Assembly (NCBI GenBank): GCA_036172245.1
Contig: JAYWIR010000001.1
Location: 62,001-126,000 of the forward strand
Length of the DNA stretch: 64,000 nt
Origin: Raillietiella orientalis
Lineage: Eukaryota
Reading direction: 5' to 3'
This document shows positions 17,401 through 58,500 of this stretch, piece after piece. Numbering within the stretch: position 1 is the stretch's first letter; each line of letters starts with the position of its first letter. Under the pieces are notes generated by a model, which was given only the letters and a program-made list of their open reading frames with translations, did not search any database and had not been told where the DNA came from. A program made the translations under genes and the position numbers.

Positions 17401-17599
17401 TCTCCTTTTGCAGTGCGGCCCTTCGAAATGCTTCGACTCGATTTTTGCTTCGCAAAAGATTTTACTCACGCATTCTCTGAACGCCACATCCGATTTGGGG
17501 GGAAAAAAAGGAAGGGGGGGGGGAGCGTAGGAAGAACTTCCATATCTTCAAGGATTAATGGAACGGGGACGCTACTGCTTTGCGAATGCAATTAAAGAA

Positions 17600-19996: not shown

Positions 19997-21682
<1,686 letters not shown>

Positions 21683-24305: not shown

Positions 24306-26001
<1,696 letters not shown>

Positions 26002-31390: not shown

Positions 31391-33086
<1,696 letters not shown>

Positions 33087-34003
33087 TTGATGTAAAGTGA
33101 CTGTACACTTCAAAGCAATTTGTATGCATATCCATGACATGCATTTAGTTTTGTGTGACTGAATTGGAAATATAGTGATTTGAGGTTGTGCGAGTATTGC
33201 CTGTTTTTATGCATGCAGTGTTTTTTTTTATAAAATCAGGGGTAAATCACTGATATTCATTTCTTGAATGCACTTTTTTGTGGTTTGTGTTTTTTGGGTG
33301 CTCAATTTCTCGTGGTGAGGTTTGATTTGCATTGAATTTGTAGTTTTGCGCTGTTCTTGTGGTATTTGTTGGTCAGAAGTGTGAGCCGATTCTGCTTGTG
33401 TAACCGGTTTTCCCCCCTGAAGTTGCCTTTGCTGTGACTCATGACTAAAGTACGTAACCGTAGTATTCCAGTGTACCCAAAACACGTCGTTGCTTTGGTC
33501 TGCCCGCCATTCTCGAGGAGGGGCGATGGTTGCCACAAAAGATTGTTTTCGGAATTTGAGTCCTACTAAGTTCATTTGGAAAACGCATTCCGAATGCTTC
33601 CTTTATTTCTAAAAATTCTGAGGGGGCCCGTGTTTCTAAGGGCTTGTAAGTTTTTTTTTTTGCTGGCTGCCAAATTTTTGAAACTTTACATTCACTGGGT
33701 TAGTGAATATTGAACGTGACGTGTGAGTGGACTTTTTTTTGTATGCGTTTGGCTGGAAACTTTTGGTTTCTTTTAGACGGTTGGAGTGTTGAAAAACATT
33801 TTCTTTTGCGTCTTTCCTGTAATTAACTGCAAAGGTTTATTATTATTGATTTCTATGTATGGAGGCGCTTGCCCGTTGCTTAGATATGAAGAAATCAAAA
33901 ATTTTTCAGAAAGTTCTGCACACTTCTATAAGCTGCTTTCCAATTTCCCTATTTCCTTCTCTTTTAAATCTACTTAATGTGAACTTATCGTTTTTGAATA
34001 ATT

Positions 34004-34450
34004 ATGGAAGATGAAGAGGCTGGAACTGAGTTTCCCGAAGAAGCACCGAAGCAGGAAGAGGCCCCAGCAGCAGAAGATTCGGGAGGTGTATTTGCCGTGC
34101 TCCGAAGACCGATAACATTTCTGGCCGAAGCAGTAAAGAGGCAGCTGAACGAAATTTGTCCGGACTGTAATTGGCTGGAAATCGGAATAGCCATTTTGTC
34201 CTTAGTCTTCCTATTGTGGCTTTTGTGCGTCCTTTCAAAGATTTTTTGGAGGCGCATGAAAGAGTGGAAATGTTCCAAAAGGCACATCCGCAGTTTCCAG
34301 ACGAAGATGTGCTCTGTTTTCGAGGAGTGGTGTGTTTGCTTCCCAAGGAAAAAAAAGGAAACTTTCAATTATTTAGTGTTCTCACCTGGACTATCTAAGG
34401 AAACTACAAATTCCTCTTGCTGCCTCGGCGATAATTCTCTGCTCAAGTAG
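34004..34450 (+). CDS. Hypothetical 148-aa single-pass membrane protein
   Basis: ATG-started ORF with an acidic N-terminus (MEDEEAGTEFPEEAPKQEE), one hydrophobic run (IGIAILSLVFLLWLLCVLSKIFW) and a basic/Cys-rich tail; no family recognised. Confidence 0.5.
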   Translation: MEDEEAGTEFPEEAPKQEEAPAAEDSGGVFAVLRRPITFLAEAVKRQLNEICPDCNWLEIGIAILSLVFLLWLLCVLSKIFWRRMKEWKCSKRHIRSFQTKMCSVFEEWCVCFPRKKKETFNYLVFSPGLSKETTNSSCCLGDNSLLK

Positions 34451-34459
34451 GTGTTAAGC

Positions 34460-34496
<37 letters not shown>

Positions 34497-36974
34497 GCCT
34501 TTTAACATTGATTTCTCAAATGCTCCAAATGCCTTGTTTCATGTGGATTGCTCCCTACTTTGATAGAACGTCCAAATCGTGTGTGGCATGTTGAGATTAA
34601 TGCCGTTTTATGTGTTCCCATTCGTTGTGAGATCGAAAGTGATGGCATAAAACCGGGAAGGAAAGTTTTAGCGATTCTTTTTTTTTTTTTTTCTGCTGTT
34701 TTTTCGGTTGCAGTTTTTAAGCGCCTTCAACCGAGAAGTCTTTGATGGACCTCAGTGCAGTCTTCGGTGCCAACCACCTGTCGTGCTGAGTCTGTTTTGT
34801 GTAGTTGAGTGTTCCGGCGGGAATGTTGAAAGGATGGTCTGAAACAAGAGTGGCTTTTGGCTGCATTTGTCCTTCCGGCACCTACGAACTCCAGGCGCTG
34901 CTTCCCTCGAGACTGGCTGCAGCGTTGTTGGCAAGGGTGGTCCGTTTCCGGTTCATCACCATCCAGAAATTTAGCCATTCTCAAATGAGTGGTTTTGTAA
35001 TGAGTGGCCACAGAAATAGGGCTGTCTAGAGAAAGCTAAAAAGGGAAAACACCAAGCGGTACTCTGGCTAGCAGCATTAAAAGTCAGTCATTTTGCAATT
35101 TACATACTGTCCAACTTGACAGCAAAAAAACAGTTTGACGACGAGTGGCCACGGTATCACATGGTTTTCCCATGTGCCTGCTGAAAATTCCTCAACAAAC
35201 TAGGAAACGCATTTTGTTTCTGATAAGAGAAATCATCTTTCGCGTAATTGGCAATGTTTTTTTCGTGATGCATCCATGCTGTGTTCTTCAGCTCAAGTGT
35301 CAATTCAAGGACAAGGTCGAGCGAGTTCAAGCAATGGGAGGTTCCTATGGAGGATGGGAGTCATCTGTCCGAAGGAAGCATTTCTTCCTGAGAAAGAAAG
35401 CGCACACAGAAAGGCATCGTGAGGATAGCCGGAAAGCCTTTTCGTAAATTAACTTTGTGCAGAGCACATGTGGAACGCTGCGAGCAAATGGGAAGTGGGC
35501 TAGAGGGAGCAAAACGAGTGGGTGGGATGCAGCTGAGGTACGTGAATTCTCAGCCCAGGCAGGGCTGGATAACCTGGGAGGTTCGCTCCTTTGCATTTCA
35601 TGTGGTGGTGTGACGCGCAAAGCAAAGCGAACGGGGGGGGGCGTGGCCCGTGGGTTTGTCGAGGCGCGACCTCAGCGCTGGTGGCCTCTTCTTCTTCGAA
35701 ACCTTGGGGTTGCTTCCGGTTCGTCTCGGAGATGATCCGTGCCGAAGAACTTCTGCCCGTTCTTAATGCGGAATCCAGAGAAATGAGAAGCAGCCCGGTG
35801 GCTGGTGATACCCACGTCCCCTGCACAGATCCGCATCTTTCCCTTATTTCTCGAGGAAGTCGCACGTGCCTGCGGTTCGGACTTTGGAATTGGGATGAAC
35901 TTTTCCTTCGGAGTGTTTCGTTTTCACACCCGGGTGCTCCGGGGCGTTTCTTTTTCCGAAAAAAAAAAACAAACGAGCACGTGTAGGGCCATTGCCCCTA
36001 CGGCGTCCGATAAAAAATACTTTGAACTGCCGAGTTGCCAGCGCGCAGGCCGGCGAGTTCGACTCGACGCGGAGGGGGAAGGGGCCAAAAAGAAAAAAAG
36101 AGTGAGTGTTTCGTGGTGAAATCAGGTGGACACGCAAAAATTATGGCCTCCCGGTCGGGGGGGGGGGGGGAATGCATTCAGATTGCCCAGTTCGATCCTT
36201 GTCCCCTACACTATTTCGAACATTTCGTGTTCCTTTGGATTTAAAATCAATTTGATAACTTCATGATAGCCCGAAAGGAAGGCATTTTGATTTGAGAGAT
36301 GACTCTCTCATTTGCTGCAATAAGAGAAGTTGCAACAGTTGATGAAAGGGATTTTATGAGTTTCAAACAAAAAAGCTGAAAGCACGTGTTGAGACGAATT
36401 TCACGAATGACTCAGTCACTTTCCGGCACTCTTTTATTTTTCTTAAAAAATGAACACTTCCAGTTATTTAAATGAAGGTGTTCCCATTGGAATTATTAAG
36501 CAGGGTCCAGAGGAAAATTTAGAGGTTCCTCAGGTTTCCTCTGGAGACTTGAAATTTAGAGAAAACGAAAGGCAGCAGTGTGGTCAGGGCAATCTCCGAA
36601 CACGAGCTTTTCATTGCAAAAGAAGAGACCTCAAAACGGCGGTAGAATAGGTCGATCGGGACTGCCGCATATTTGACCTCGGCAAAAGGATGTCAAAAGA
36701 TGGGTATCAGAAATTCTGCCATTCCTCAGTCAAGGCATCTTTTTTTTATTTTCACAAACGCAGAACTTTCCGGTACGGGACTGTAAGAAACGGAGCTTCT
36801 TCCGTTCCCAGTAATCCCGCACTGAAAAAATTGTTTTGTGCTCAAGTTAAAGTGGAAACATCAGTGCGGTCTTTTTGACACAGGAAAGGAAAACCGGACG
36901 TTATCCCGCGGGATCGGGTTCGAAACGAAGGTCGCAGTTAAAACTCTATCGCCATTCTAACTCTTTTCTACAGA

Positions 36975-37757
36975 ATGATGGCACACTTTCAGCCGCGTTG
37001 GATGCCATCAAGTGGGGCGCAGGCCACTGCTTTTTGTTCATGCGAGGAGGTGTCTTCAACTCTTGCATTTGTGGATGGTCTCGTGCTTTTAAAAATAGGG
37101 GTGGCACCTGCGATCGCCGCAGGATCGCCCTGGGGTCGTAGGATGCTGTTTTCTGATCCAAAAAACAGCACGTCAGGCATGCATTCGTTGTTTTTAAACG
37201 CCCCCAATCATTTTGCAGTTCGGATCATTTTATTTCAGGCATCCTACAAAAACGAAAAAAGGTACAAAAAGGGTCCTTTCTTTAATGCATTTTGAAACAG
37301 TGGATTAAAATTTGCGGTTCTTCCCACGCGTAGCTTACTGAGGAGCTGCATACATGCAACCAGAAGAAACATTCAGATCTGCATGTTCGTGATGACATCT
37401 CCAGAACTCACTGAGCTACTCATAGAGGCAGCGCAATGTGGAATCGATGTTTGTTTGATCACAGACTGTCGCATGGCTTTCGCCTTCCGAGACAACATAC
37501 AGAGGATGAAATCTTCAGGTGAAAACTCTTCGGTTATAATACCAGTAAGCTATAGCACGAGTCTCTTCGCAGGGGTAGAGATTTTTATCAACAGCTCTCC
37601 ATACCTGATGCATCACAAATTCCTCGTTCTCGATGAAACTGTGGCCATAAACGGGTCCTTGAATTGGACAAAGGCGGGACTATCAGGTAACGCAGCCATA
37701 AGTGGCTGTTCCAACAGAGCACTTTTCATAAAATTGGATTTTCACCCGCCATTTTGA
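36975..37757 (+). CDS. PLD6: PLD6/MitoPLD/zucchini-like phospholipase D-family protein; 5' and 3' ends uncertain, possibly disrupted
   Basis: LLRSCIHATRRNIQICMFVMTSPELTELL..GIDVCLITD..|GVEIFINSSPYLMHHKFLVLDETVAINGSLNWTKAGLSGN contains the single HxKxxxxD..GSxNW motif; GT-AG intron at ~37519-37572. Confidence 0.8.
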
Positions 37758-39751: not shown

Positions 39752-40900
39752 TCATGCATCCGATATTGAAGGCACATTATAGTAATAATGCGCATCATTA
39801 ATTATGTCAATACTTTCATCCTTTACTAATTGTTCCCATTGCTTCCAAGTGTCTTCATGTTCTTCTAAAAAGTTGAAAGCAAGGTTATTTTGATCATGGA
39901 GTTCATTTGGAAACATGAAGCAAGGTCTCTTTGGAATTATTTCTGAAGGTTTCCTTCCTTTCATTAATAATAATAATAAAAGGCGTTATATGAACAACAT
40001 TTGGGGCCAGATGCTAACTTGCCACTTGCACTGTGCACGTACACTGCATTTATTTCATGCTATATGCTTGTGGATTTTGTTCAGTTGTGCTTTCCATTGA
40101 TTTCTTGGAAATAGCATTCGGAAGTCAAGACACTGTGAAACATAAGGCTACCTTGGATCATTGAATCGCCATTCAAAATTATACTAACAAATTCAGTAGG
40201 AGCCAAAGAAAGAAAGAAACCCTCGGATCATTATAATAACTTAAAGTGCATTCAAACAAGTTCAAATTATTCACTTTAAAGACATCTGTTTTTGCATCCA
40301 AAAAGAGGGACAATAACCTCCCAACCTTGCTCCAAGTATGTATAAAGTGCATTTCTCCCTCGCACATTATTACAGCACTTTGTTGAAAGTGCTGTAATAA
40401 TGTGTTCTCTGAGAAACAGTAAATTGTTTAACACTTAGCGTTGGGAACTGAGAATGAGTTTTGAGCCGAAATGTCCGTTCCTACATGAGCACGTATGTGT
40501 GCAGATATGTCTGTTTGATGAAAATCTCATCCAAGCTATCATTAGGTTTTCCCGTCAACATTACATACTTCATTGCGTTTTCCAGCAAAGTTATGAAAAT
40601 GCATATGTGCATCACGTAACGTAACTGTTGTGGTGATTTTAAAAAATTCTATGAATTTTTTTTTATCTATCGGAAGATTTTTTGTAGATTTAAGTGGTAA
40701 ACATGCGAATGAATATTCTGCTTTCGACAGATGTATAACTAAAAGTGTTTCATAATAGCACCATTCTTCAGAAGTAACTAAGAGGTGTGTAATATTCTTC
40801 TCCTTTTTAGAAAATCGTGAGAATCTGTTGTTTACCAATGATCCGTGGTTGGTGTCACACTTCCAGAGCGAATTCTGCAATCTTTTGCAGAATAGTAGCT
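39752..40900 (-). CDS. Candidate unrecognised multi-exon gene (or pseudogene) head-to-head with METTL4
   Basis: Successive protein-like minus-strand frames (40880-40570 ending NE|GTATGT; ~40410-40220 ending PR|GTTTCT; 39964-39752 FLEEHEDTWKQWEQLVKDE..*). A complete model could not be closed. Confidence 0.3.
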
Positions 40901-41005
40901 CCTCTTACGAAGGGGATTCATGCCACCATCAATCTTGAAAGCCCAAGCATTTTAATGTATATCATGGGTGCTCTGTAATAAATTTAAAGGTGATCATTTG
41001 TGAAT

Positions 41006-42294
41006 ATGAGTATTATATTTGGCACGGAGAATGGTTGGATCCTCGATTCTCGTCAGTCGCTTTGCTTCACCGTCGGACATGGTAAAAGTATTTCGTTTAT
41101 CTAGAAATCGTTTTAAACATAGAATAAGCAGATGAAAAGTACATCTTCCGCAAGCTTGCATTTGATTTGAGGACCCCATTTAAAATGGATACAGAAGCGT
41201 CAAAATGCACTTATGAAACAAATCTTTCAAGGAGTAGAAAAAGGAAAAAAAGTGTATGCAATGTTTTTCGAATTTGCAGTAGGAAGTGAGAGCGTATTTT
41301 AGGAGGGGAAAAACCAGGGAGATATGCCAGGGTTTCTGGATCTCGTAAAACATGCTAAAACTCATGGTATTTTTGAAGTGGAAAATATGTGTGTAGAAGA
41401 TGGAAATAACTTGCAGTCACGCAATTTCGCCAATAATTGTTTAAAGTCTTCATTTGGTAATTTGCTTCGAGATCAGGGCATACAAGGTGCAAATTTCCTT
41501 CCCAATGCTGTCATCACAAAGTGCGTGGAATGTGAAATCCTACTCCCACCTTTCTGTAGATTTATTAATGGAGATATTAATGCACTGAAAATATTAGTGG
41601 AAGAAAATAAAGTGTTTGATTTGATTGTAATGGATCCACCTTGGCCCAATAAATTTATAAAGAGAATTTGCCCAAGCAAAAGGTATTTTAGAAATATTAG
41701 ATTTGATAATGTTCTGCAGTTATAGCACAATGAAACCAGAAATTTTACTTACACTACCCATTGAAAAATTATTGGCATCTGGTGGTCTGTGTATTGTTTG
41801 GTGTACTGGTAACAAACAACATCAGGAGTATTTGTTATCTACCTTACTACCTGCTTGGCAGTGCAAACTGCTGGCTGTTTGGAAATGGGTTAAAGTAAGT
41901 CAAAAGACTTTGACATGTGAATGGATTCTTGCAAATAGGTTACAGTAACAGGGGAACTGATAAAGCAGCGGAACTTTTTGGAATATTTATTTGTAACTCA
42001 AAGGGATGGCAATGGTTCTGTACAGTTTCCAGTTGGATGGAAGTCAGAGAAACTGATAGTTAGTGTACCAAGTGCTATTCACTCTCACAAACCACCTTTA
42101 GCAGGTAACATTTGAAAATTCCGTTAGTTTGTATATTTCGTGCAGAAATTTTCCAGCCATGTTTTCCTAATTATTCTCCATATTGTTTGGAGTTATTTGC
42201 CCGCAACTTATTTCCTCACTGGGTTTCTTGGGGTAATCAGGTACTCATGTTGCAGCAGCTAATGTTATATGATAAAGTGGAGACCTTAAAATAA
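41006..42294 (+). CDS. METTL4: METTL4, MT-A70-family N6-adenine methyltransferase; multi-exon
   Basis: MSIIFGTENGWILDS N-terminus; FDLIVMDPPWPNK catalytic motif; LCIVWCT; WKWVK|VT; LIVSVPSAIHSHKPPL; CLELFARNL..WVSWGNQVL. Confidence 0.93.
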
Positions 42295-42377
42295 GCAAAC
42301 TTGCACTTAATGTAGATGTACAGTTGTTTTGCCATTGCAGCTGTGATCATCTTTTAACAAAAAAAGTCTTATTCATT

Positions 42378-43839
42378 ATGACTGCTTTAAAAACTGGAGT
42401 GTTCATTGTGGCTGCAAGGAGAACTCCTTTTGGCGCTTTTGGGGGTAAATTTGTGGATAAAACATGTACTGATCTTCAAGAAGTAGCTAGTAAGGCTGTG
42501 TTATCTGATAGTAATGTAAATCCTGAGAAAGTGGATTCTGTCATCATTGGCAATGTGATCAGTGTAAGTCACTGTCAAAAATGAATTCTTCATCTTGAGC
42601 ACACAGGCATCAGCCACAGATGCTACATACTTGGCACGGCATGTGGCTTTGCGCTGTAATTTGCCAGTTCATATTCCCTGCCTAGCAGTCAACAGGCTGT
42701 GTGGATCTGGTATGCAGTCAGTGATCAGTGGAGTTCTAGTATGTGATTGATATTGTTCACAGACACACTTGCACTGTAAATTAGGAAGTGTTAACAGGAT
42801 GCAGCCAGATAATACTAACAGGGGGAACTGAAAATATGAGTCAGTCTCCTTTTGCCTTGAGAGACATGCGCTTTGGAACACGCCTAGGAACAGACCTGAA
42901 AATTGAAGACAGTCTTTGGTCAGCACTAACAGACAAACACATCAATACACCCATGGGACTAACTGCAGAAAACCTTGCAGAAAAATTCAATATTACCAGA
43001 GAAGATTCAGAACAATTTAGTCTGCAGTCACAGCTACGCTGGAAACAAGGCATCACTTGTGTCCAACATTAATATTTTCTAATGTGCTTTTAATAGCTCA
43101 TGATGAAGGTAGATTCAAAGCAGAAATCTGTCCTGTAAAGATTCAGGCAAAAAAGCTGGATGTTATTGTGGACTGTGATGAGCATCCTCGCCCTAACACA
43201 ACTCTAGAAGGTTTATCAAAGTTACCTGCAGTTTTCAAAAAAGGTGGAACAGTGACAGCAGGCACTGCATCGGTAGAAACTTAGTGGGAACATAACCAAG
43301 TACAAACTATTTGTAGGGTATCTGCGATGGAGCTGGTGCTCAGCTGATTGCAGATGAAGAAGCATGTGCTCAAAATCAGCTGGTTCCTCTGGCCAGAATA
43401 GTAGGATTTTCTGTAGTTGGTTGTGATCCCAACATAATGGGTATTGGACCAGTCACAGCAATCCAAAAGCTTTTAAAAGCTGTCAATTTGCCACTGCACA
43501 ACATAGACTTGATTGAGGTAAGAGGAAATTGGTGAAGAATGCTACGTTCTCTAGATTAATGAGGCTTTTGCATCCCAAACTATTTCCTGCCAACGGGAGT
43601 TGGGAATAGACTCAAATCAGTTAAATGTAAATGGTGGTGCTATTGCTCTAGGTCATCCTCTTGCTGCTTCAGGGTCTCGAATCATTACGCACTTAGTACA
43701 TGAATTACGGTAATGTTATGTATGCCAACAAAGAGAATTTCCCGAATTCTTTTGTAGGCGCCAAAAAAAACGATATGGTCTCGGGAGTGCTTGTATAGGA
43801 GGTGGCCAGGGAATAGCAATGCTTTTGGAAAGTTGTTAA
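42378..43839 (+). CDS. ACAA2: Mitochondrial 3-ketoacyl-CoA thiolase; exons 42378-42563, 42607-42738, 42785-43049, 43097-43272, 43317-43517, 43555-43709, 43758-43839
   Basis: [79 protein letters not shown]. Confidence 0.96.
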
Positions 43840-46557
43840 CTTGGCTGCAAAGCCATATAGAGCTTGGTGACTACTGTGTGGACAATCTGTTGGATGTGCT
43901 CATCTTCATTACAGATGACGGTCAAAGTAGAAAGATCAATATGAGCAGTTTTGCCATCTATCACCACATACACATGCTCTCCTTTGTACAGTTTTGGTAC
44001 AGATTCCTCACCAAACATTTCTTGCAGTGTTTCTATTACACATTCCTGTGGGGCAATGAAAATATTCTGCATATTTTTCTTACCTTGAAATGGGTACGGT
44101 CGATGCGGGAAATTGGTGGGACTGTGAAAGGCACAGATTGCTGGGTTTGCTTCTCAGCTTGTAATACCACTGTCAGTACAGCATCAGCATACATATCATT
44201 GATAGGACCTGCTTCCCACTAATAAACAGGTTTGATTGACAATATGCAATTTGAAGCAAACCTCCAGAATCACTAGGTTCTTCTCAAGAACCAGCTTTAT
44301 GGCTCCAAAAATTCTGATGCCCTTCTTATTGTCTTCTTGCAAGCACTCCAGTTGTCCTGATAATTGTGATAATAAATACTGAAGCAACTGTATATTTCCT
44401 GAGAAGTATACACTCTGACGCTGTGTGACCACACTTGTTGTCATATTGGTATACTCTTATGGTGGCTGATATATTCTGCAACCATAACACCCTACTTACT
44501 TCCCAAATCTGTTGGTGAGAGTAAATGATACGTAAAATTCCGTTTCACCAGAATACCAGACAGTTTAAGGTCATCCTTTGGAGGCTCCATGGCCAATGTC
44601 CCCATAACCTACCTCAAACATAAAACTTACATTAGTAAACTAGATGGCTCACCTTAGCTGTCTTTTCACCACGGAAGTACAATTCTACACTCTGTGTGTT
44701 CCGTGGATTGTGAACCTGAATAGCAGCACTACTGTCATCCTCATATTCACGAACAAGTGCTGCTTTCAACCGATTCATCTCATTCTGCTCACCATGCACC
44801 AACACCTTTAACAGATTTTTAATGCCAGTACACTTGTATGGGAGATATGCTAACCACATGTGGAGGCTTCAGTGCTCTAATAAACTCAGAGGTCTGCTTG
44901 TAATCTGTATGTGCACTGAAAGAGATGTAATGCACAGACATGCGCAATGGTAGCTTTTGACCAGTCATTGTAATAATTTCCTCTGGCTCTGATAAAATGT
45001 GCTTGGCCAGAGTTCCTTCAACACAATATCCTAATAAACTGTTTTAATTCCTTAAATGAGCATGAATATCTAACCTGCTATAATTACACCATTTTTAGGA
45101 TCAATGCACCATGATTCAAACAGTTCTCTAGACAACCCACTTTGCATCATTCCCGGAGAGGCCATAATAACACAGGGACCTATATCATCAAAGTGATCAA
45201 TGCCCTGCATGCAAATTATTAGAAATGCAACAAATTCATCATTCCTACTTTTAAATTCGAAATATGCCGAAAGACAAAGGGATTGCTAATGGCAATCTGA
45301 CGCTTGATACGCTCATTCATAGCATTTATATATGTCTGATAAACAGCCATACATTTCTTGGCCAAGGAAGATGCGTAGTATATGGGAATATCATGGAGCT
45401 CTGGATGGTTTGCCCAATATTCATCTTACAAGACAATATTTAACATGAATCACATGTTAGACAAACCAAGAATAAGCAGCAGCTCTTGTGCACGTCCTAA
45501 AGCAAAAACAGGAATAAGGCAGCGCCCACCACGAAACACAATGTCATGCACCAATCCCGTGAAACGATTCTCACGATCTTCACGTTTCTCATGAATGTGA
45601 GTTCCATAAGTAGATTCCTAAACAAAAGTGAAAAGCTATCAGTATAGTACACATACTGTTATTAATATATCAGGAGAAATCGTGGGTATCTCAGCAGCCA
45701 TTAAATGTCTATCTTCTTCACGTGAAAAGTCTCCAGTGTATAAAACCTATATCAATTATCTAAACCTATTCATTTTGTCATACTTTAACTCCAGCAATCT
45801 CTATCATAAACATAGCTGCCCCAAGTACATGTCCAGCATTGTAAGCCCAAAATTTAATACCATGTACTATTTTTTCTTCATGAAAATTGATAGTCTCGAT
45901 TTTCTCCATGCTAGCTTCTAAATCAGCATCTGTGTAAAGCATTTGTTCAGTTGCAATGTTGCTGTAACACATTATTATCCTATGTGGATATTTTCATGCT
46001 TCCACTTACCTGACTTTGATATAATCTGAAAGAAGCCATCTATAAATTGCCTTTGTAGCATGTGTCATGAAACAACGACCTTTAAAAGTTGTTTTCATAA
46101 GAAACCAAGGTAAGGCACCACAATGGTCAAGGTGAAAACTGAAGATTTATGAAGACATTGTAAATACATGCCCATACATTGATCACTTAAAGAGAAATAA
46201 ATACTAACTGACTAACTAGGAGAAGATCTAATTCATCAGCTTCAATAAGATCAACAAACGGCAATGCATCCATTCCAGATAGACCTGGATGTATACCACA
46301 GTCCAACTACAGACATACTATAAACATCGTTATATTCCTAAAATACTTCACCATTATTTTTTTTCCTTTAAACTCCAACATGATGCATGACCGACCCACC
46401 TCTTGACCAGCACCTCTGAAATTCAAAGATTAATTGGTATTTATCAGCATTTGTTAATTTATGAAGTAGGTTCATAGTTGAGTTGAACTCACAATGGGCG
46501 AATTGTTAATAAATCAGTCTCTTCTAAAGGTATTTCGTGTCGTTTTTTAACTTCCAT
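43836..46557 (-). CDS. CPSF3: Cleavage and polyadenylation specificity factor 73 kDa endonuclease; multi-exon
   Basis: [84 protein letters not shown]-terminus KLYMALQPS*. Confidence 0.97.
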
Positions 46558-49500
46558 TCTAGGCACTACGGGAGCAAAAACATTACACCGGCTTAAAAAC
46601 GCATGGAATTAAAACAAATAAACAAATCTGAGGATCATGAGTAGATCACATACAACAGTGATCATGTACCTAAAATTTTACAATGTTTTTATTATGAAAC
46701 ATCAACTGATCATTATCAAGGAGGTTTCAGACAGCTTCAACAATTACTTCGTACTATCTTTATGCCTTTGAATGGTGCTTCCACTTGGGACATGTTTGAA
46801 CAGAATTACCAAACATTAGAAATACTTCATATAGATTCTGGTATTCTTCTCCCCAAGGGAAAAAATGAACGAAACTAAATCTCCACCTTCTGGGACGAAG
46901 GTGCTGTCAAAGACGTGTTTTGCTCAATATTTTAAAAATGTTTTCTGGATGAGATAATTAATTGTCATCAAAAACATTTCGCTTCGGTCAAAACTGAAGT
47001 CCTACATTAAAAAAAATACGAAGGGGTTTTTGAGTTGTACAGGACGATGGGCACTGAAAAACCGTTGTGTAACAATCATGGAAACAAACTTAATTATTCC
47101 TTTATCTTGATGACCGTCGTTTTCCCATTATCTGGAGGTTAAATACCTCCAGATAATGGGAAATATCTGGAGGTTAATTATATCTGAAGCTTAAGTAAGC
47201 TTCCTTAAGGAAGAATTCTGAAATTCTCGATAACTAAAGAGGATTTTCTCAATCTGTAGAGAAATTACATATCAGTATAATGGATAAATGAGAAAGACAT
47301 CATCAGTATAATGATACAGTGCTTTCCTTTATACAATGCAAAGTGTCCTTTTTATGAAGTGGCCATAAATGCAATTGGAATTGTAACTGTCAAGCAGGCA
47401 CTGGAATCGTATTTATTCTATTCTTTCTCTAGCAAATAAGAATTCATATAATTTAAATCCTCAGAATGATCCTCAGAATGGTAAATAGTAACAGTGGGAT
47501 GAAAGAAAATCTACAGTTGACCGACCGCGATCTTATCCGAGTGTTGGCCACGGTCCATGTTCTGTGAAAAAAGTCAAACTATGCAAAGGAGTTCGAGACT
47601 ATGCATAGCGGGCGCGCTGCGACACGAGTCACAGTGGTGGACAAGAGATCGATGCACCAATCACTGTGGATGACAGGCACCGTTGTTCACTTGTGGAATA
47701 TGGGCATACGTCGTGTATGTGGTAACTGTGAGGAGGGGCAGACATTGAGCAAGCACTCCTCCATTGAATTCCGCCGCAGCAATCAATGCGAGCACACAAA
47801 ACTAATGCTCCCGAACTGGTAAATGCAGAAACATATGCACACATACAAACTGTATATGGTGCGAAAACCCTCGTCCAAGTCTGCGAAAACAATAAAGTCC
47901 TTGGTGTTAAGGCGGTAAACTTTTTCGCAGGCCTGAAAATCGATAGCTTTTGAGAGACCATTAGCTACTTCGGCGGAAATATAGAAGCTCCCGTTTTGCA
48001 ACTGGGAAAGTTTCTGGCGGTGAGAATGAAGGCTGGACGATGGTGAAGAATGCGACATGGTGACAAAACGAAGAGCGGAAAGAAGATTTAAGCTCTCAGA
48101 GAAAGGTACGTAAAGAGATACCTGTTCCCCAGAAGTGCACTGTCGTACTCAAACGGTTCGAGGCTGTTGCTGTTGTCTGAGCAAGAAACGAGGCTCGATA
48201 GGAACAGAGGCAAGTAAGACGATGTAGCCGACGACAAGCAGAATGCCTATCAAACGCGAGACAGTGGGTATTCGAACAGAAGTCCAACTCAGTAGGGACG
48301 GACCATAATCTATCCGCGTTAAAACGGAGATGCCATCCCAAAATGTGCAGGCACCAGTGATGGCCGGTAGTGGCGAAAGCCTTGCTTGAGGGTGGGGGAA
48401 ATGATTTTTGCTTCCGAGTGATGGAAACGGTGCAGCATGGAGAAAGGAAGACGTGCTGCCTCTTCCGAATCACGCGTGCTGCCGGAGGACCCCTCACTGA
48501 GCGAGGCAAGGAATCCGCTGCCATCTTCTCAGCGTTCATGAAGGGAATAGCTTCTTCTCGTCTTAGTGTGGCTCCTTAGGAAGAGACTGATGTTCAGCGG
48601 ACGGCGCGGCGACGAGCATAGGAGTATTGTAAGTATTGCGCTGTGCCGTTTTGACTTGACAGTACTCCTGGAATGTCTCGGAACAGGAGGTTTGTAGAGG
48701 TCGAGAGGGAAGCGAGGCTCCGCACGATCAGAGTCAGTTTCCTCACGAAGGCAATGGAGTTCTTCGGAGCACCTGCATGCTCCACAGACTGGCCTCCAGA
48801 ATACCTCATCTCATCTCAAAGGACTTCGACATCCACTTTCTGTCGACTGAAAGTACAGTCTTACCACAGTACTGGACGGTGTCGGAATTCGTCAAACTCA
48901 GTACTCTTCTCATTTTGACGAGAAAAAAAAAATGTTTCGGCACTCAGAGCATGCTCGGAACTCTTGACACCACCCCACTCTCATGATGGAACAAGTGAAC
49001 ACTTGAGTCTCGTGAACAGTGCCGAACACTTCCATAGAATGCCTCCCTGATCTACATTATGAGTACATGCAACCCACATAATTGCAAACTATAGCATAAA
49101 TTGTTTCAGCCACCATGGTTAGTATTTTATTCGAGATAAGTGACAACCAGAAATATAATTTTGCAAAGTACTTTTGTTACAACCAGACAAACACTAGGTT
49201 GCTATTCGCAACTTGAACCAAACATATACCTCATCTTGCTACAAACATTCGTTAAGAGATTACAAGTTTTCTATTCATTTGAAGGAAATGCCAGTTAATT
49301 AAATAATTCCTAGATATCAAATGACCTAGTCGTCCTTAGTGTTACCATAGAAATGGAAATCAGTAAAACAATATTCTGTTCGCGACACAGGTTTGAGAAT
49401 GCAAGCAATTCTACAGAAAACATCGGATTCACGATAGACTGAAAACACAATGTACAAAATGCCAACTAATCAGAAGAAAGCATTAGAATTCTTTAGAAGG

Positions 49501-52500
49501 AAAAATTCGTTAGAGAAACATGTTTAACACACACACCGTTTGACCTATTCTTGCATTTAAATCTACCGGAGTGCACTAAATGATGTGGAATTAGATGCAT
49601 ATAGTCAGTGGGATGACGAGCATCTTTTTTGTATCTTCCAATCCATAAAAACACTTGCTGGATGCCTCTGCAGTACTCTCCATTGATCCGACGATATCGA
49701 GTCGACAGTCAGTTTTGGTCTATGCTGATTAAAACCTTGTAGATGATCCAGCAAAATGGAATCACCGCAATGTGCAAGTCGCAGCATCTTTTTGCACATG
49801 TCTTTTGCATACATCACTGCAGAAACAAGTTAGCAGTGGTGACATTCATGTCCGAGTTATCATTAAGCCATCTTCCAAAAAAAGCAGGGACATGCTCCAA
49901 AAAAACAAAAGGAACCAGTTTCTGGACTCTGCCTCCTTAAAACACAGTGCATGTTCATTTCTTGGATACATGCTGACGCAAAAGCTGTTTCCGCATAGCA
50001 GCCTGAAAACACCACATGGTCGTTGCAGGTTGGATAGAACCGAAAACTGAGAGCCACGTGGCATTGGTTCTTAAAGGACTCCTGTACGTTCCTCTGGGAT
50101 CAGTTCCGATGGCCCATACTCGCTTGCTGCTGTGATGGTCAGCTCGTTTCAATCCGCTGAGGTTGCTTCGCAACACCATCCTTCAAAATGTTGTCACTTG
50201 TGCGACATTCAGCACGCAAAGCTGCCAAGTGAAAAAAATCCTTTCCCCGCCTCCTCGCCCCCGCACAGTCTACGCTTTTTGAAGCTCCCGGGATTCACGT
50301 TGGCTTTATGCCGTCATATAACTAAAAAACGGAGAGGATGCAGACTGCTCTTCTAGAAGAAAGAAACGCCTGCAAATGATTCCAGATGTTTGGGGATTAA
50401 TGGTTGTCCGCATGACTGCAAAAGAAATAAAATGAGTGAGAAGAGAATCATACATCCGGGAGAAATGACAATTAATACTACTCCGGAAATCTAATTGAAG
50501 GTGGATGCTAAAACCACACCATCTTGAAATCTATGGTAAAAGAGAGACCTTCAAACCGAGTCCGTTTAGAAAATTCATCCAGCCAAAGTGATGTTTCTTG
50601 CAAGCAAAAAGCAAAAAATGAATGATGACATCTTTATCTACAGTTTTGGAGCAGCAGAAACAATGAGCGATTATTTCTATTAGAAAGAATAGAAGAAGGG
50701 AGTGTGTGCATCTCAAACTTTCAGTTGGGATTCTAAGTGCAAGGGTTTGTGAGAAATACAATAAATGCGGGAATGTGATGCAAGCCCGAAGACAATTAGG
50801 ACTTTCTCCTGCAGAAAAAAGCACACAAAAGTAGGGATGCCTTTTTTGTCTGCACTGGGATCAAAAGATAACACTGAAGAACGCCTTCAGACAAAAGGAA
50901 GCATGAAGTAAGGACATAGTAATGCTTCCATTAAATAAGGACTTATCCCATATTTCCTTCTTGTATTTTATTTTTTCCCCCGGGAAAGACTCGTTGATCA
51001 TCCAGCCAGAAGAAATTCATTTGCAGCCGAACGAATGCCCAATGACGATGGCGTCATTTCTACGCCTTGCAACCGTTTCCTTTGCAGATGGAAAACCGAT
51101 TCCAGGTCTGCTTTACGCGTTGCCAGGTTCGCAAGTTTTCCATTTCCTCGATTAGAAATTCTTCAAATTCTGCCACTCAGTTTGCAAAATTCACTGCTTC
51201 TCTTTCATTTCCTGGTCAACAGTTTGTTACAAACAAAGGTACACTATTCACTTTTGCAGGTTGCTTTTCTACATAAAAAGTATAGTTTTTTTCGATGATG
51301 TCTTCGAAAATTGTCTCTTTCGAGAAAGATCTTTTACTGATACGAAAATTTAGCATGAGATGAAACTTATGAACATTCATATGGAAAGACTTTTCAATAG
51401 ATGCAGGTGATCATTTTCATGCTTCCCTGCAGAAATTCTACTATGGTTAACTTCAGTACTGCTGAAATTTTTTTACTTGAATGCGAAAAGGAGTACAGTC
51501 TTCTTGATGTTTTTTGGCTTTCCTCGACGTATTTCTTTTCAAATCGTACACTAAACTCTAGTTGGAATCTTTTCCCAACTTCTGAAGGAATTTATAAGCA
51601 AATCTGTGTAATAAAGTATAAGCGATGTATGAGGGGATGCATGCTTCCCCCCTCCCCTCCCCAAATTTATTTTTTTATACTCATTGACTATGAAGACTGT
51701 CCTTGTTAGGTAAAACACCGTTTCTTTTTCCCTTCAAGTTAAGTTAAAAGTATATTGCTAAAATAAATCATGCATGTTCGAGTACATTTAGAACGCGAAG
51801 TGTTACTAAGATATCGAAAGTTTTTTTTTTTTTTTAAGTTATTCGCATTTTTATCCGAAGAATGTTCCCTTTGCCATAACTCTTAATCTTCCTATCCAGA
51901 TAACTTCATGTGGAGAAATCTAATAAAGTGGTGGTTTCTTTTTGCTTCGATGATCTTTGAGTTATGTCATGAACGGTTTTAAAACACCAGACTTGATGCA
52001 CTGCAAATGAAGGGACAATAACCTCTGTACGAACCATTTGTAGTTGCATCGTCCCGGTTCGGTTTCCTAATCGAGTAAGAACTTTGTTCTGCTGTTTTAA
52101 TGAATATCTGATGACACATAGCAGAATTCCTTTATTTCTTTTTTCTTCAGTCAGAGTTACACAGGTTGGAATTTTGTTTCCAAAGTCTAGTTCATCGTTT
52201 GTAAGGATGAGAAACCGATTCCGTCTTCACACATTGCGTTCCAAGACTGCTTTCTGACCCATGGGGTCTCGAAAAAACTCCCACTTCTTGAGTTTTATGT
52301 ATTCAGGCAACCAAATTACACAAAATTCCTTGGAAGGCAACAAAGAAAGCTGTTTTCGTCTTCTGGATATTGTTTTAGGAAAGAATTACTTGTTACCTCC
52401 TCCGAATTTGCGGTTTGTGTTCCTCTAATGATTTCCTACGAAAGTCGCAGAGGAAACTCTCATCCATAAACATGGAAGATTATTATAGACTATTTATTGC

Positions 52501-52599
52501 GTTTTGGATGATTCCTTTGTTTTCTAATTTCAGGATTTTTTTTTTTTATATCGAACTGCACGATCTAGAAATTTGATAGACAAAAGCTTAGAAGATGCG

Positions 52600-52940
52600 T
52601 AATAGGAAGGAATCATTTTCCAAAATAATAATAATTTGATAATAATTTTCCAAATTTTTCATCTATTTGAGTTATGTGGCGCCAAACTTTTGCATGAATC
52701 ACAATTTACAAACCCACTGAACATTTTATTGGAAACTCGGAGGCAGGTCTCTGCGCGGAGAATCACGGTTATCAATTTGGAGGTTTCCCCTCTAGATCTG
52801 TAGTTTTGGGAAACCCATCTAGAGGCTAAAAGTATATTGTGTTGCCAAGCGGGAATTCTAGCGGTTTTTTAATCACTGACCGTCGAAGTTTACGGGTTTT
52901 TCATGGTTTCAAAGAAAATTTTCAATTATAGATGTCAAAT
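52600..52940 (+). mobile_element. Possible Tc1/mariner transposase C-terminal relic
   Basis: EVSPLDL*FWETHLEAK (~52780-52830) resembles SPDLxPLDFFLWGxLKxKVY; no terminal inverted repeats seen. Confidence 0.25.
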
Positions 52941-55030
52941 AGAATTCTGGATATTTTATCCACCCCTGTTTCAATCTTGGCGGATGTGGAGTCTCATTTA
53001 TTGTGTTGTTGATAAAGATTGTCGAGGAAAATGAATTCCCAATTATCCCAAGATATTTTGATATTTCAATTGTGATTCTTGTAGAGCAGCGGAAACTAGT
53101 GTGAGTATTCCATTACAATTTACAGACTGTTCAATTGGAAAAAACCGAAACGAGGACCTTCTCCGTGCGACGCAGGGTGAAGCAAGGATGTCCCCCAAGC
53201 TCACTCCTGTTTATCATCTCAATAGGACCCACCCTGCGCTCAATGAGACATAACTAAGGGGACGACGTGACATTAGCTTACGCCGACGACATCGTCATAC
53301 TATGAAAGGACGAAGCGAAAGTCCATGAAATGATGGCACATTTCCAGAAATTAGTCGAGCAAGCCTCCTTATCCATCAACCCGGCGAGGTGCGCGATATG
53401 CTACAGCGGGAAAATTCCGAAAGGTACAAGGGACTTGGAAATCCGGGTGAAGGAAGGGAAAACCCCTTGTATTGCCTTATCACAGGCATACGAGTACTTG
53501 GGAAAACCCTTCAGTGTAAAGGTATTCTATACACAACCATCCAAGGAGGACATCTGCCAGAAGGCGAGAGTGAGCTCTCAGGATGGTAGAAAATAGACGC
53601 TTTGAATACCTTCTTCTACTCCAGCCTAGTTCATTACGAGGGGCTGGGAACTCACCGAAAGATGTTGACGAAGAAATTAGGAAGAAAATAAAGAAAAGCC
53701 TTACACCTACCATCCTGAGCAGCCAATGAATATTTGTACGGAGACAGGAGCAAAGGCTGCCAAGGACTAATGAATCTAGCTGGAGAATCCGACCTCTTCA
53801 TCATGGACAGCTGCTTCAAACTGCTTACGTCACCAGACAACGCGGTAAGAAAGTTAGCACAACAGACCCTGGAGGAAATCGCCCCAAAACGTAACCATGA
53901 AGTCTCGACAGATGAGAATCTCTAGGAATTCATGACGGGCAAGACCGCTAAGCCCAGAAAAGATAGAGAGAGCCCCTGGACGAAAGGAAGGAAGGCCTCT
54001 AGAAGAATTAAACCCCACTAGGAGTTTCAACAAGGAGAATCCTGCATAATAGTTGATGGCGTAATCTTCACTAGCAGTACAAGAAGAGGGCTCGTCTCCT
54101 CCGTGAAAGCATTGCAGCGGGAACACGCATGGCAATCCCTAATTCGAAACCACATTAGTAAAGGGAAGGTCATGCAGTGTGGGGGCATGCATCACTCCTC
54201 AAGCTTCTTCCACACGAACAGAATCCACTTAAGATTTCAGGACTACAAGCTCATCCATGTTGCAAAACTCAACTTACTTCCAGTCAACGCTGGGCCAACA
54301 AAAAAAGGACACGAAAGAGTACGTCGGCGTTTCGGAACGGAGGACGAAACTCTATTCCACGTATTAAATAGAGAGTCGTCAGAGAGTCGTGCTTCTTAAA
54401 TAGATGCAAGAAGCACGACTCTCTGACGATGCAGCGCCGTGATGCCATTCAAGAAATCATCAGAAAGGCCGCAGCGGATGAAGCGAAGTGGAGTCTTGTG
54501 TCCAGCAATCGCAGAGTACCAGGAACCACCTCCAGCCTAAAACCAGAGCTGGTTTTAGAAAAAAGAGATAGAATAAGTTCACTGGACATCTCCTGCCCAT
54601 ACGAGAATGGGAAGGAGACGCTCACCACAGCTAGGAAACCTAAAGAAGGAAAATACCAAGATATCGCAATGCAACTCGGAAACAGTGGACAACACACAAA
54701 AGTGCAAGCGATCATTGTCGGCTCACTTGGAGCATGTGATCCTGGAAATGAAGTACTACAATACCTAGGAATACCAAAAACGAAGCTTGTGAAGCTAAGA
54801 TAACGGTTGGGGCCACCTGCATCCGTTATCCAAGTAGCATATATGCAACCCACTTAAGAAGGGAAAACGCAGCCCAACGCGATGATCTGGATAATGATCT
54901 ACCTCCGGAAGAAATCCAGCAAAGCAGCGAAGAACCGTGAAGGACAGGGGGAAAACAACAATCGCGGAAGATTCTCCAGAGCCGTTCCAGGAATAGCTTT
55001 GTAAGAACTTAAAATGAATAATAAAGTTTT
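52940..55030 (+). mobile_element. 5'-truncated, inactivated non-LTR retrotransposon with restriction-like endonuclease (NeSL/Utopia/R2 group)
   Basis: RVKQGCP, LAYADDIVIL, YEYLG, YLYGDRSKGCQG, ETLFHVLN, KPELVLEK..LDISCPYENG..KEGKY..IIVGSLGACDPGN; several in-frame stops and frameshifts; AATAAA at ~55020 marks the likely 3' end. Confidence 0.88.
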
Positions 55031-55272
55031 AACTATAGGTAATAAGACTGTCAGTGCGGTGCTCCCCTTACAAACGTACGAACACGTGCAGCAGTGGCTT
55101 CATAACATGAATTTCAAGTGGTCAACAATTAATTGTTAGTTTGCATTTCATTTTCGTACTATTGAATCTGAAGATTAAATGACATCAAATGGTTAGATAA
55201 TAATAGTCATAGATTCCGGGGTATTAAAATCTAGATATTTTTTTTTTTTTGGAAAATCGAGGGTTTTCGAAG

Positions 55273-55284
55273 GCCATCTAGCGG
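55273..55284. promoter_or_regulatory. CTCF-like motif upstream of citrate synthase
   Basis: GCCATCTAGCGG matches the core of the arthropod CTCF consensus (GCGCCATCTAGYGG) by eye. Confidence 0.3.
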
Positions 55285-55525
55285 GGTTCCATTAAATTCT
55301 GTTGGCAACCCTGCTTGGAATGGACTTGGAGGAGGATGAACACGGAACCCGCTGTGTGCTTGGGGTGGAATGAAAGTCACGTTGTTGGGTTGTTCCTGTG
55401 ACAGGTGTAGGGAAATTCGGTCATTTCAGGACGATTTGTGGGTGGAAGCAGATGCGAAAGGGAAATGATTTCTGCTTTCTTGTATTTCAGATTTTAAAGG
55501 TTTGAAAACTTGTGTTCACTGAAAA

Positions 55526-58500
55526 ATGACTATTTTAAAAAGTTTTCAACGATTACCATGGAAGCAAATTGCGAGGGTGAGATCTGCGACACACATAGAA
55601 GCTCATGTACTTACTTGTAAACTCATACATAAATACTTCCAGTAATGGTAGAAGCGCCCTATATTGGGTCTACACATTGTACACACAATATGCGGTCTTT
55701 ATTTTGAAATCTAGTATTTAGAATAATGCAATTTGAATAATTAGTGTGGATTGCGGATGGACAGATTTGCACAGGATTATTATTTGTTTCTGTAGAACAA
55801 CGAGGCTTTCTCGTTTACTCGCACACTGTCTACCGAGAACACCAATTTGAAAGAAATATTGGCTGGTAAAATTGAAGCTCATGTCAAGGATGTCAAAGAA
55901 TTCAGAGAAAAACATGGATCCACCAAAGTGGGGGAGGTTACAATAGATATGGTATGAAAACTGAAGCATTTGTTTTTTGCCACGAATGATGTCTTCATAT
56001 AGATCTATGGAGGAATGCGAGGAATCAAGGCATTAGTAACAGAAACTTCAGTTCTCGATCCGGAACTAGGAATCGAATTTAGGAACTATACTATCCCTGA
56101 AGTGCAAAGGTTACTTCCTAAAGCATCAGGAGGTATTGAACCTTTACCTGAAGGATTGTTTTGGTTATTATGCACAGGAGATATCCCAACAGAAAAGCAG
56201 GAAAGTATTGTTCTTAACCTCATGTCATTAATTTTAGATTTTCAATTTGGAATTTGTTAATGGATAGATCTCATTTTTAATGAATGTTTCCAATGAAAAT
56301 AGTTGAACTTCAAGGCAAAACATTTGTTCTCCCAGTACTTTTACTGATGCTTGAATGCTTGCATGTGTTGTTACTATCTGTATGTTCATGTCATACTCAA
56401 GTTTATGAAATGTCTGCAGTTGCTTTGATGAAACATTTTAATTTGTATGTGTTCTTTGTTGCTTTTCACTTGTTGTGAAGATTACATATTTCATTCATTA
56501 CTATGAAAATTAGCTTGATTCTTATTTTCTACTGTACTTTTATCTGAGTCAAATCAGCCTATGAATTCAATTTGTTGTTGGTCTTTAAATTTGCATGTAT
56601 AAAAAATCAACCTAACAGTGTCATATAGAGTAATAGACTCCTTAAAACGAGAGTGTGTATTAATCTCCTATGCAATTATCAAATTGCAATGAGTACATAA
56701 AATAACTCAATGTGGTTAGTTCTTTTGATCAAAATTAATATCGGAAAAATTCAGTTAGTTGTGATTTTCGTTTTTGATATCTTTAATAATCCAGTTTAAA
56801 TAATTCATTACAATATTACTATAAGTGAATATTATTATATTTTCAGTGTATATGTATGATACTTGTAGTTCTTGTATTGTATTTCATATTATTTTATTTT
56901 TATTTGGTTATAGAGCTCTTAAACAAGATCTTACACCCATGCTGCAGTTGTGAATCCTGCACACCTATGTTGTAAACTTTATGCCATTATTACTGCAAAT
57001 TTTGTATTTCAAAAGCATTTTACCATCTTACATGAAGTCATGCATGTGTTTGCTGGCAATTAAATCCACCTTGTTAGGGTAAACTACATTCTATTTAAAA
57101 CTATTCTTTGGCAATGTTTCAATGCATGCCAAAGTTTTGGCAAACTGTTGCTCTTTCCCCTCTTCCTCATGAAATTCCAATTAATTTGTTGTCTGGATTT
57201 TTAATTCTTCGGTCATCTTATGATTTAATGAAGCTAGACAGTAAATAAGATTATATTTTTCAGTTTTTCCAGCATAATCTTTAATATCTAGAATTGAAGG
57301 AGCAACAACACTTGTTTAAAGATGCTGATACGTTGCTTCTACTGCTCATTGATAACACTCAATCATTATTTCAAAATCATAAAGTTATATGTATTTACTA
57401 GACATTTTATTACAATTCCTTCATTGAATGTTTTGTATGTACTATATGAAAATGATGAAAGTAATACTTAAGTGAAGTTATTTTATGTGAATATAATGGT
57501 GTAAAGTTGTTATGATTCTCATCTCAGATAGTAAAATATCTGGTATATGATATGCACTTGATATCTATATGCAAAATTCAAAAGACCATGACCAAGTATT
57601 TCAGCTTGGCATTTTTAGCATCTTGTTTCTGTGAGCATGTGTATGTGGTTTGTAATTATTTCATAAAATTTTAAAACTAATAAGTAGTTAAAGCGTATAA
57701 TATTAAAAAAATGAATTTTAATCCAAATTTCTCTAAGGGATATCTTTAATATCTGTGTAATTAATTTTAGTCAATCACCTTTTGCTTTTTGGTACTTTAT
57801 AGAATTTTTTTTCATTGCATTCACAATAATAAGTGTTACACCTTTTAATATTTGGCATGTATTGTCCAAAAATCTTCATGTTATTCTTTAACATATATAT
57901 ATAATTGTGATTTTAAGATGTTGATATGATATCTTTAAGCTAGATTAGCAATGCTGCTGGTAAATATTATTTATCCTTGTGGTTTGTATTTGGAATATAT
58001 GTGATAACCTCCAAATATTAATTAATACGTTCTATGTACAGGTGAGAACTCTTTCCAAAGAATTGGCAAAGAGGGCAGATCTTCCACCCCATGTTGTTGC
58101 TTTAGTAAACACATTTCCTCCACATCTTCATCCTATGGCCCAATTTACTTCAGCTATTGCCAGTCTTTCAACAGAAACTAAATTTGGGAAAGCTTTTACA
58201 GCAGGAGTCCCAAGAAAACAATATTGGGAGGTAAGATAGGAACATGAATATTGTTATTGCTAATTATATAGCTAAAGTTCACTTAGTTTCTGGTATAATG
58301 TGCTGTTTCCCCTTTAATGTAACTTGTTTTCTTAATTACATGATGTTTTAAATTACCATTTTATAAATGAAATTCAGTTTTTTCGAGAAAAGAAAAACAT
58401 GGAATTAATACAAGTATATTTGATGTATTATTGTATTTATTTGATATACAGTGTTTTCCAAGTTGAACTGAGTGCTTCAAAAATGAATGCTTGACCATTT

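Follow-up and report, generated by a model that had tools for sequence, protein, structure and literature searches.

The subject of this analysis is a pair of neighbouring genes, a METTL4-like methyltransferase gene and an ACAA2-like mitochondrial 3-ketoacyl-CoA thiolase gene, in a 64,000-nt stretch of contig JAYWIR010000001.1 (positions 62,001 to 126,000 of the forward strand; hereafter the window, in whose own coordinates all positions are given). The window is eukaryotic, with a GC content of ~0.40. No tRNA genes were found in it, and no Rfam family was matched either across the window at the gathering threshold or between 40500 and 44500 at E<=1. The two genes are intact, lie on the same strand, and are 83 nt apart (Table 1); this spacing is the robust part of the observation. 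An original prediction, made from the letters of the window, had read the pair as an operon-like or nested transcription unit, and its positions for the METTL4 TAA (42294), the ACAA2 ATG (42378), the 83-nt gap, an acceptor-like site (42340), and an upstream donor (40990) were all confirmed from the sequence.

Both gene models were assembled manually and by script, and an exon search guided by position weight matrices (PWMs) returned identical models. The METTL4-like gene has coding introns of 50, 49, 37, 44, and 41 nt, and its TAA stop codon occupies 42292-42294. Exon 3 carries the DPPW motif (as DPPWPNK), exon 4 matches the Pfam family MT-A70 (E 2.2e-9), and the sole PDB match of the protein is a weak one to 7cv6, 'Methyltransferase-like protein 2' (E 2.7e-4), a plant METTL4 orthologue. 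Taken by itself, exon 3 had no relative among longer proteins and no PDB match. The predicted protein thus combines an MT-A70 domain, a DPPW motif, and a match to a METTL4-type rather than a METTL3/14-type structure, as expected of the METTL4 clade.

The introns of the ACAA2-like gene measure 43, 46, 47, 44, 37, and 48 nt. The third (43050-43096; aag/GCATCACT ... TTTTAATAG) is of the GC-AG type and was read in this way because the reading frame needs it. The predicted protein matches the Pfam families Thiolase_N (PF00108) and Thiolase_C (PF02803), and the model includes the sequences NRLCGSG and CIGGGQG. Its best PDB match is the human mitochondrial 3-ketoacyl-CoA thiolase (4c2j; E 8.6e-30 vs 1.4e-16 for the next), and the best of its 2161 database matches are named mitochondrial 3-ketoacyl-CoA thiolase. 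The thiolase domains, the catalytic cysteine motifs, and the closest solved structure, that of ACAA2, all point to an ACAA2 gene. No fused METTL4-thiolase protein was seen: of 2161 thiolase matches, the best 120 include none with MT-A70.

Table 1. Features of the METTL4-ACAA2 region, in window coordinates; a slash marks an exon-intron boundary.
Feature	Position	Strand	Remarks
METTL4-like gene	41006-42294	+	355 codons, 6 coding exons, intact
METTL4-like coding exons	41006-41081, 41132-41253, 41303-41682, 41720-41894, 41939-42104, 42146-42294	+	
METTL4 5' untranslated region (5'UTR) intron	40785-40890	+	106 nt; gag/GTGTGTA ... TCTTTTGCAG/a
Donor of the original prediction, AAG/GTGATCA	40987-40996 (GT 40990)	+	in METTL4 5'UTR exon
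ACAA2-like mitochondrial 3-ketoacyl-CoA thiolase gene	42378-43839	+	398 codons, 7 exons, intact
ACAA2-like exons	42378-42563, 42607-42738, 42785-43049, 43097-43272, 43317-43517, 43555-43709, 43758-43839	+	
Gap from METTL4 stop to ACAA2 ATG	42295-42377	+	83 nt
Candidate ACAA2 5'UTR intron	42241-42340	+	100 nt; donor cag/GTACTC within METTL4 last coding exon
Acceptor-like GTTGTTTTGCCATTGCAG	42323-42340	+	PWM score 2.1 bits
Variant hexamers GATAAA and AATAAG	42271-42276, 42290-42295	+	at METTL4 stop (AATAAG overlaps it); possible poly(A) signals
First canonical AATAAA past METTL4 stop	44221-44226	+	382 nt beyond ACAA2 stop
Last coding exon of CPSF73 (convergent gene)	43836-44045	-	Pfam CPSF73-100_C match reaching the profile end
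Continuous CpG-depleted domain	~41500-46300		METTL4 body, ACAA2, CPSF73 body; 100-nt bins, bounds approximate

The acceptor-like site at 42340 lies 46 nt past the METTL4 stop. The gap was said to hold neither an AATAAA nor a splice donor, and both statements held up: ATTAAA is absent too, and the four GT dinucleotides (42312, 42318, 42323, and 42326) all lie closer than 30 nt to the acceptor. On the plus strand, no canonical AATAAA or ATTAAA occurs from 42150 to 44221. The variant hexamers GATAAA and AATAAG, followed after ~25 nt by GTTGTTTTG (42323-42331), could form the METTL4 poly(A) site, and the T-rich tract before 42340 could be the U/GU-rich downstream element of that site, which the original prediction had missed. 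The predicted RNA structure of 42241-42400 is ordinary (z -0.79), the gap gave 0 Rfam matches at E<=1, and no core-promoter motif was recognisable in 42100-42377 except GTATATTT at 42131.

The distribution of CpG dinucleotides bears on where ACAA2 is transcribed from. Gene bodies in the window have CpG observed/expected ratios (o/e) of 0.29-0.5, repeats and intergenic sequences have ratios of 0.8-1.0, and GpC is normal. The pattern is a mosaic, depleted in housekeeping gene bodies (for example, in 4284-9813, 42378-46557, and 55780-60700), undepleted elsewhere (for example, in 12000-17600, 33200-36300, and 47500-55400), and close to 1 at gene 5' ends. Methylation of gene bodies in the germ line usually leaves such a depletion of CpG, and base composition here indicates methylation of this kind. 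We compared the region from -300 to +300 of the ATG at 10 gene starts. The o/e was 0.27 for ACAA2 (6 CpGs observed, 22.0 expected) vs 0.56-1.18 at the 9 others, and the Poisson probability of 6 or fewer CpGs was 8.7e-5 at the pooled rate (0.98, omitting one near-duplicate tubulin) and 0.039 at the lowest rate of any other start. The first 400 nt of ACAA2 contain 3 CpGs vs 17.6 expected (o/e 0.17), and the 9 other starts range from 0.54 to 1.06. ACAA2 is thus the sole start of the 10 without a CpG-retaining 5' zone. It lies in a continuous CpG-depleted domain in whose region such zones occur only at the METTL4 and CPSF73 5' ends.

Because of this footprint and the lack of a canonical poly(A) signal in between, transcription of ACAA2 from upstream is favoured. 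The idea that ACAA2 has little or no room for a promoter, and may lack one, is supported indirectly by two features that the original prediction did not use, a start without a CpG zone and the run to 44221 without a canonical hexamer. Across all of the models considered below, we lean slightly towards the view that, in the germ line at least, ACAA2 has no promoter of its own and its 5' end is transcribed from further upstream; the footprint compares ten starts only, is a proxy for germ-line methylation and not a measure of transcription starts, and would let a soma-only or CpG-poor promoter escape.

Splice-like sites were scored with donor and acceptor PWMs built from 26 curated coding introns of METTL4, ACAA2, CPSF73, HSP60, and HSP10, which are 37-77 nt long with a median of 44 nt. 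These introns (n=26; 41082-46492) are extremely short and uniform, with weak pyrimidine tracts, and the candidate 5'UTR introns described below, at 86-106 nt, are about twice as long. The site at 42340 had been called a good 3' splice site; the acceptor string is indeed present, with a score (2.1 bits) at chance level. That score ranks at the 19th percentile of the true acceptors (leave-one-out), and acceptors that score at least as high turn up about once per 72 nt. Generic acceptors (>=8/12 pyrimidines followed by YAG) number 986 in 128,000 strand-nt, so that ~0.64 would be expected per 83 nt. The donor at 40990 has the sequence and position claimed for it, 16 nt upstream of the METTL4 ATG (41006), and is not unusual: it scores 6.06 bits, ranks at the 42nd percentile among true donors, and has equals about once per 406 nt. 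Neither motif, then, exceeds chance. Two sequences considered as shared elements were rejected as well: the 8-mer GTGATCAT, common to the 3' sides of 40989 and 42340, occurs 6 times in the window vs 2.85 expected (7 of 100 shuffles reach 6), and the count of TGATCA equals expectation.

A CAG/GTACTC donor, overlooked in the original prediction, has its GT at 42241 and defines an intron of exactly 100 nt with the acceptor at 42340. Because the coding introns are 37-77 nt long and pairing over short distances would be expected, a partner at 100 nt is favoured over the one at 1351 nt. We infer tentatively that 42340 is the 3' end of this cis intron (42241-42340) in the ACAA2 5'UTR, a reading that we put somewhat short of an even chance. 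The candidate intron spans the final 17 codons of METTL4, its stop codon, and 46 nt of the gap. Counted over 102 nt, it contains 5 ATGs, with 0 in the 79 nt before it and 0 in the 37 nt after it, at a window density of 0.021 per nt. Splicing of 42240 to 42341 reads ...GNQ-L-stop and so yields no fusion protein. Under this proposal, ACAA2 exon 1 would be non-coding and made of METTL4 coding sequence. Removal of the intron would strip the last 17 METTL4 codons, the stop, the weak poly(A)-like signals, and the 5 upstream ATGs, and the mature leader would join ...GGTAATCAG to CTGTGATC...ATG. The METTL4 and ACAA2 transcription units probably overlap physically, or are transcribed together, in what is a very compact genome. 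Exon 1 might be reached from an internal promoter in the last METTL4 exons, or transcripts from the METTL4 promoter might read through into it and form an RNA with two open reading frames (ORFs); we rate the two routes equally, each being unlikely by itself.

Similar arrangements were seen at other genes of the window. At 6 of 9 loci (definitions fixed in the script), a pyrimidine-rich acceptor is found no more than 45 nt from the ATG, and at 4 of the 9 (ACAA2, HSP60, CPSF73, and citrate synthase) an AG/GTR donor lies 86-104 nt before that acceptor: 96 nt for HSP60, 104 nt for CPSF73, and 86 nt for citrate synthase. PTPN23 has a GTGAGT or a GTAATG donor, 102 or 98 nt upstream. In an empirical null for donor-acceptor distance, 64 of 986 acceptors (6.5%) had a donor in the test window of 85-115 nt, which gives a binomial P of 0.0017 for 4 of 9 loci. 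For METTL4 itself, the top-scoring donor and acceptor pair upstream of the ATG defines a 5'UTR intron, likewise overlooked in the original prediction, with a donor of 8.83 bits (~1 per 4000 nt) and an acceptor of 10.84 bits (~1 per 10667 nt). The total of 19.7 bits is reached by a fraction of 0.001 of 3000 random windows, and this is the only statistically solid one of the candidate 5'UTR introns. METTL4 transcription therefore starts upstream of 40784, and the 40990 donor therefore falls inside a 5'UTR exon (40891-41005). The donor at 40785 is, furthermore, a stronger potential shared donor than the one at 40990.

Several results weigh against the 100-nt intron. The 42241 donor scores 1.37 bits, the 8th percentile of true donors and a level reached by chance ~1 per 51 nt; its C at +4 is found in 0 of the 26 curated coding introns; and its acceptor has the low score (2.1 bits) noted above. 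The 85-115-nt window was picked post hoc, and P rises to 0.055 with 60-160 nt. The unbiased PWM pair scan backs the METTL4 5'UTR intron only and selects neither the ACAA2 candidate nor those of HSP60, CPSF73, PTPN23, and citrate synthase, whose best-pair scores lie inside the null (fractions 0.24-0.78). AGGTAC was considered as a general donor or motif and discarded: it occurs 17 times vs 14.3 expected, citrate synthase and HSP10 have it within coding sequence, and three further copies (20761, 25080, and 32165) fall within the long alpha-tubulin reading frames. The two routes to exon 1 have difficulties of their own. An internal promoter would make the missing CpG-retaining zone unexpected, and a read-through product would bear a 339-codon upstream ORF, so that ACAA2 should be translated poorly.

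Among the alternatives, the one that survives best is that no splicing takes place at 42340, which we consider rather unlikely. The site would be a chance match or the downstream element of the METTL4 poly(A) site, and ACAA2 would be expressed either from a minimal promoter at the METTL4 3' end or in the gap, which would leave it a very short 5'UTR, or as the second ORF of an unspliced dicistronic RNA. Dicistronic mRNAs are known in insects, and we counted them in favour of this explanation. Acceptor-like sites of the quality of 42340 are as frequent as ~1 per 72-130 nt, and the order and spacing of GATAAA (42271), AATAAG (42290), and the tract ~25 nt beyond them may be those of a poly(A) site. 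Weak poly(A) signals may be normal in genomes of this sort, in keeping with a copepod study in which AAUAAA occurs in only about half of cDNAs (PMC4664967). However, the first 400 nt of ACAA2 are as CpG-depleted as gene interiors, which argues against a normal promoter, and the search of 42100-42377 for core-promoter motifs recognised nothing besides the one at 42131. An unspliced leader from before 42310 would include two upstream ATGs, and a second ORF after one of 355 codons would be poorly translated.

It is also unlikely, and a little more doubtful still, that the pair is an operon resolved by a spliced leader (SL), in which the METTL4 promoter would drive both genes, the METTL4 mRNA would be cleaved directly behind its stop, and an SL added at 42340 would produce a capped monocistronic ACAA2 mRNA. 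To our knowledge, animals have no efficient route other than SL trans-splicing for the translation of a downstream gene that lacks a promoter, and we counted this for the operon. The ACAA2 start without a CpG-retaining zone, the missing canonical poly(A) signal between the genes, and the 6 of 9 loci with a pyrimidine-rich acceptor close to the ATG fit the same explanation. The spacing of 83 nt, with 46 nt from stop to acceptor, is within the known range for operons; PMC7986045 gives median intercistronic distances of ~100 bp for C. elegans and of 1-33 bp for Ciona and Oikopleura. On the other hand, candidate cis donors lie ~100 nt upstream of 4 ATG-proximal acceptors, and together with the solid cis 5'UTR intron of METTL4 they mean that trans-splicing is not required for such acceptors. 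The 42340 acceptor is at chance level, and the window gave no Rfam match, to an SL RNA or otherwise, although an SL gene may lie outside it.

The probable lineage also counts against an SL-resolved operon. The closest thiolase relatives among the best 120 of 2161 are 66% identical and come from an ostracod, crinoids, decapods, and molluscs. When the window protein was placed in a tree with 27 of the best 120 relatives (18 named rows and 9 unnamed, hand-picked), it fell in a clade (support 98/90) with decapods, an ostracod, and a springtail, on a long branch of 0.41. A 676-residue exon of PTPN23 has 8 relatives at 28-42% identity, 7 of them arthropod; against the ESM Atlas it returned sub-threshold ALIX-domain clusters only. 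Both genes suggest that the organism is probably a fast-evolving arthropod with no close database relative. The accessible text of PMC7986045 names copepods and amphipods as the only trans-splicing arthropods, with operons unreported in both, and that of PMC4664967 records a copepod SL in calanoid data, not in cyclopoid or harpacticoid data. A metagenome scan returned 4 loci, of which upstream ends were read at 3. Two mRNA-like contigs among them had ordinary leaders of 194 and 145 nt (L001 and L002, respectively), no METTL4 ORF, and no shared leader; they are only 66% identical to the window protein and so are uninformative on this organism.

The last alternative was put forward in the original prediction and has its precedent in the VAChT/ChAT loci: the two genes would share a promoter and a non-coding first exon, spliced to 42340 from 40990, as first proposed, or from 40785, so that the METTL4 coding exons lie inside ACAA2 intron 1 and the two mRNAs are mutually exclusive. 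We consider it very unlikely, for although the 40990 donor is respectable (42nd percentile), the 5'UTR exon at 40891-41005 and the strong exon-1 donor at 40785 make non-coding exons available, and the CpG footprint and missing poly(A) signal suit a single promoter, the intron would measure 1351 or 1556 nt vs 37-77 nt in the 26 coding introns, it would have to bypass five good acceptors and the very strong one at 40890 (10.84 bits), a donor of the 40990 quality is unremarkable in a 115-nt UTR exon (~0.28 expected), and a closer donor exists at 42241.

The surroundings of the pair contain further features. Downstream, the CPSF73 stop codon (43836-43838) overlaps that of ACAA2 (43837-43839) within TTAA. 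Past these convergent stops, the first canonical poly(A) hexamers are at 44221 on the plus strand and, on the minus strand, an ATTAAA complement at 43089; the 3'UTRs of ACAA2 and CPSF73 probably each extend in antisense across coding exons of the other gene. Upstream, between 38800 and 41000, no credible gene was found on either strand, and Pfam matched none of the ORFs there. A PLD6/Zucchini-like gene on the plus strand (36975-37754; PLDc_2, HKD motif) has a CpG o/e of 0.81, unlike its CpG-depleted neighbours. Three alpha-tubulin copies (20334-21679, 24653-25998, and 31738-33083) are 94-95% alike over their first 300 nt. The second and third sit within a direct duplication of 7085 nt with flanks 99% identical, and in each copy exon 1 ends in ATG, with a GC donor in the first (ATG/GCAAGT). 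The stretches 12000-17600, 33200-36300, and 47500-55400 are GC-richer (0.45-0.50), with peptides that recur and with long ORFs in several of their frames, and are probably transposable elements. Finally, a perfect palindrome with arms of 16 nt separated by 1 nt (61792-61824; CGCAACCTCCCAGCAG / CTGCTGGGAGGTTGCG) occupies the centre of the bidirectional, CpG-rich promoter of HSP10 and HSP60.

What the pair means depends on which explanation is correct. It is possible, although improbable, that a promoter-less ACAA2 is expressed from a METTL4-ACAA2 polycistronic RNA in an arthropod-like animal with gene-body methylation, through an undescribed SL or a route independent of SLs. If so, it would be the first operon to be demonstrated in this branch of the animals, and it would show that a missing CpG footprint can flag operons from DNA alone. 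A transcript of ACAA2 that starts at or inside METTL4 would amount to promoter sharing or reuse of coding exons between unrelated genes, in a lineage without known operons. If the genes are only tightly packed, with an embedded promoter, the pair would be an ordinary feature of a compact genome. The CpG-footprint test could be used to count promoter-less downstream genes genome-wide without RNA data. In either case, adjacency alone gives no reason to tie adenine methylation to beta-oxidation; the coupling of the two that was proposed earlier has adjacency as its sole basis and is unsupported.

Several known systems resemble this arrangement in part. In the overlapping tandem or 'conjoined' genes of Drosophila and human annotation, a 5' non-coding exon of the downstream gene lies in the last exon of the upstream gene. 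As in these genes, the candidate exon-1 donor here is in the last coding exon of the upstream gene, and the upstream 3'-end signals would fall in intron 1 of the downstream gene; unlike them, the candidate overlap involves coding sequence and not 3'UTR, and there is no separate promoter footprint. Insect dicistronic mRNAs, such as Adh/Adhr and stoned, share with the METTL4-ACAA2 pair two same-strand ORFs separated by a short spacer that lacks a canonical poly(A) signal. Here, in contrast, the upstream ORF is 355 codons long and rich in AUGs, which makes leaky scanning implausible, and neither a structure resembling an internal ribosome entry site nor an Rfam match was found in the spacer. In the cholinergic locus, VAChT is nested in the first intron of ChAT, and the geometry would match if 40990 or 40785 were joined to 42340. 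The skipped METTL4 differs in having five short introns with good sites, and the required intron would be ~30 times the local median.

The SL-resolved operons of C. elegans, Ciona, Oikopleura, and chaetognaths likewise combine genes of unrelated functions on the same strand, less than 100 nt apart, with an acceptor, or here an acceptor-like site, just before the downstream ATG and a downstream gene without a promoter-like footprint. The METTL4-ACAA2 pair differs from them in its possible cis donor 100 nt upstream and in its probable arthropod affiliation, a phylum without reported operons in the accessible part of PMC7986045. The chaetognath P. gotoi, as described in the accessible part of PMC12460157, methylates transposons and not gene bodies, whereas CpG depletion in the window is of the gene-body type. 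Whether as a tight tandem pair, an overlapping unit, a dicistronic RNA, or an operon, METTL4-ACAA2 would be a new, putative member of a kind of arrangement that is already known.

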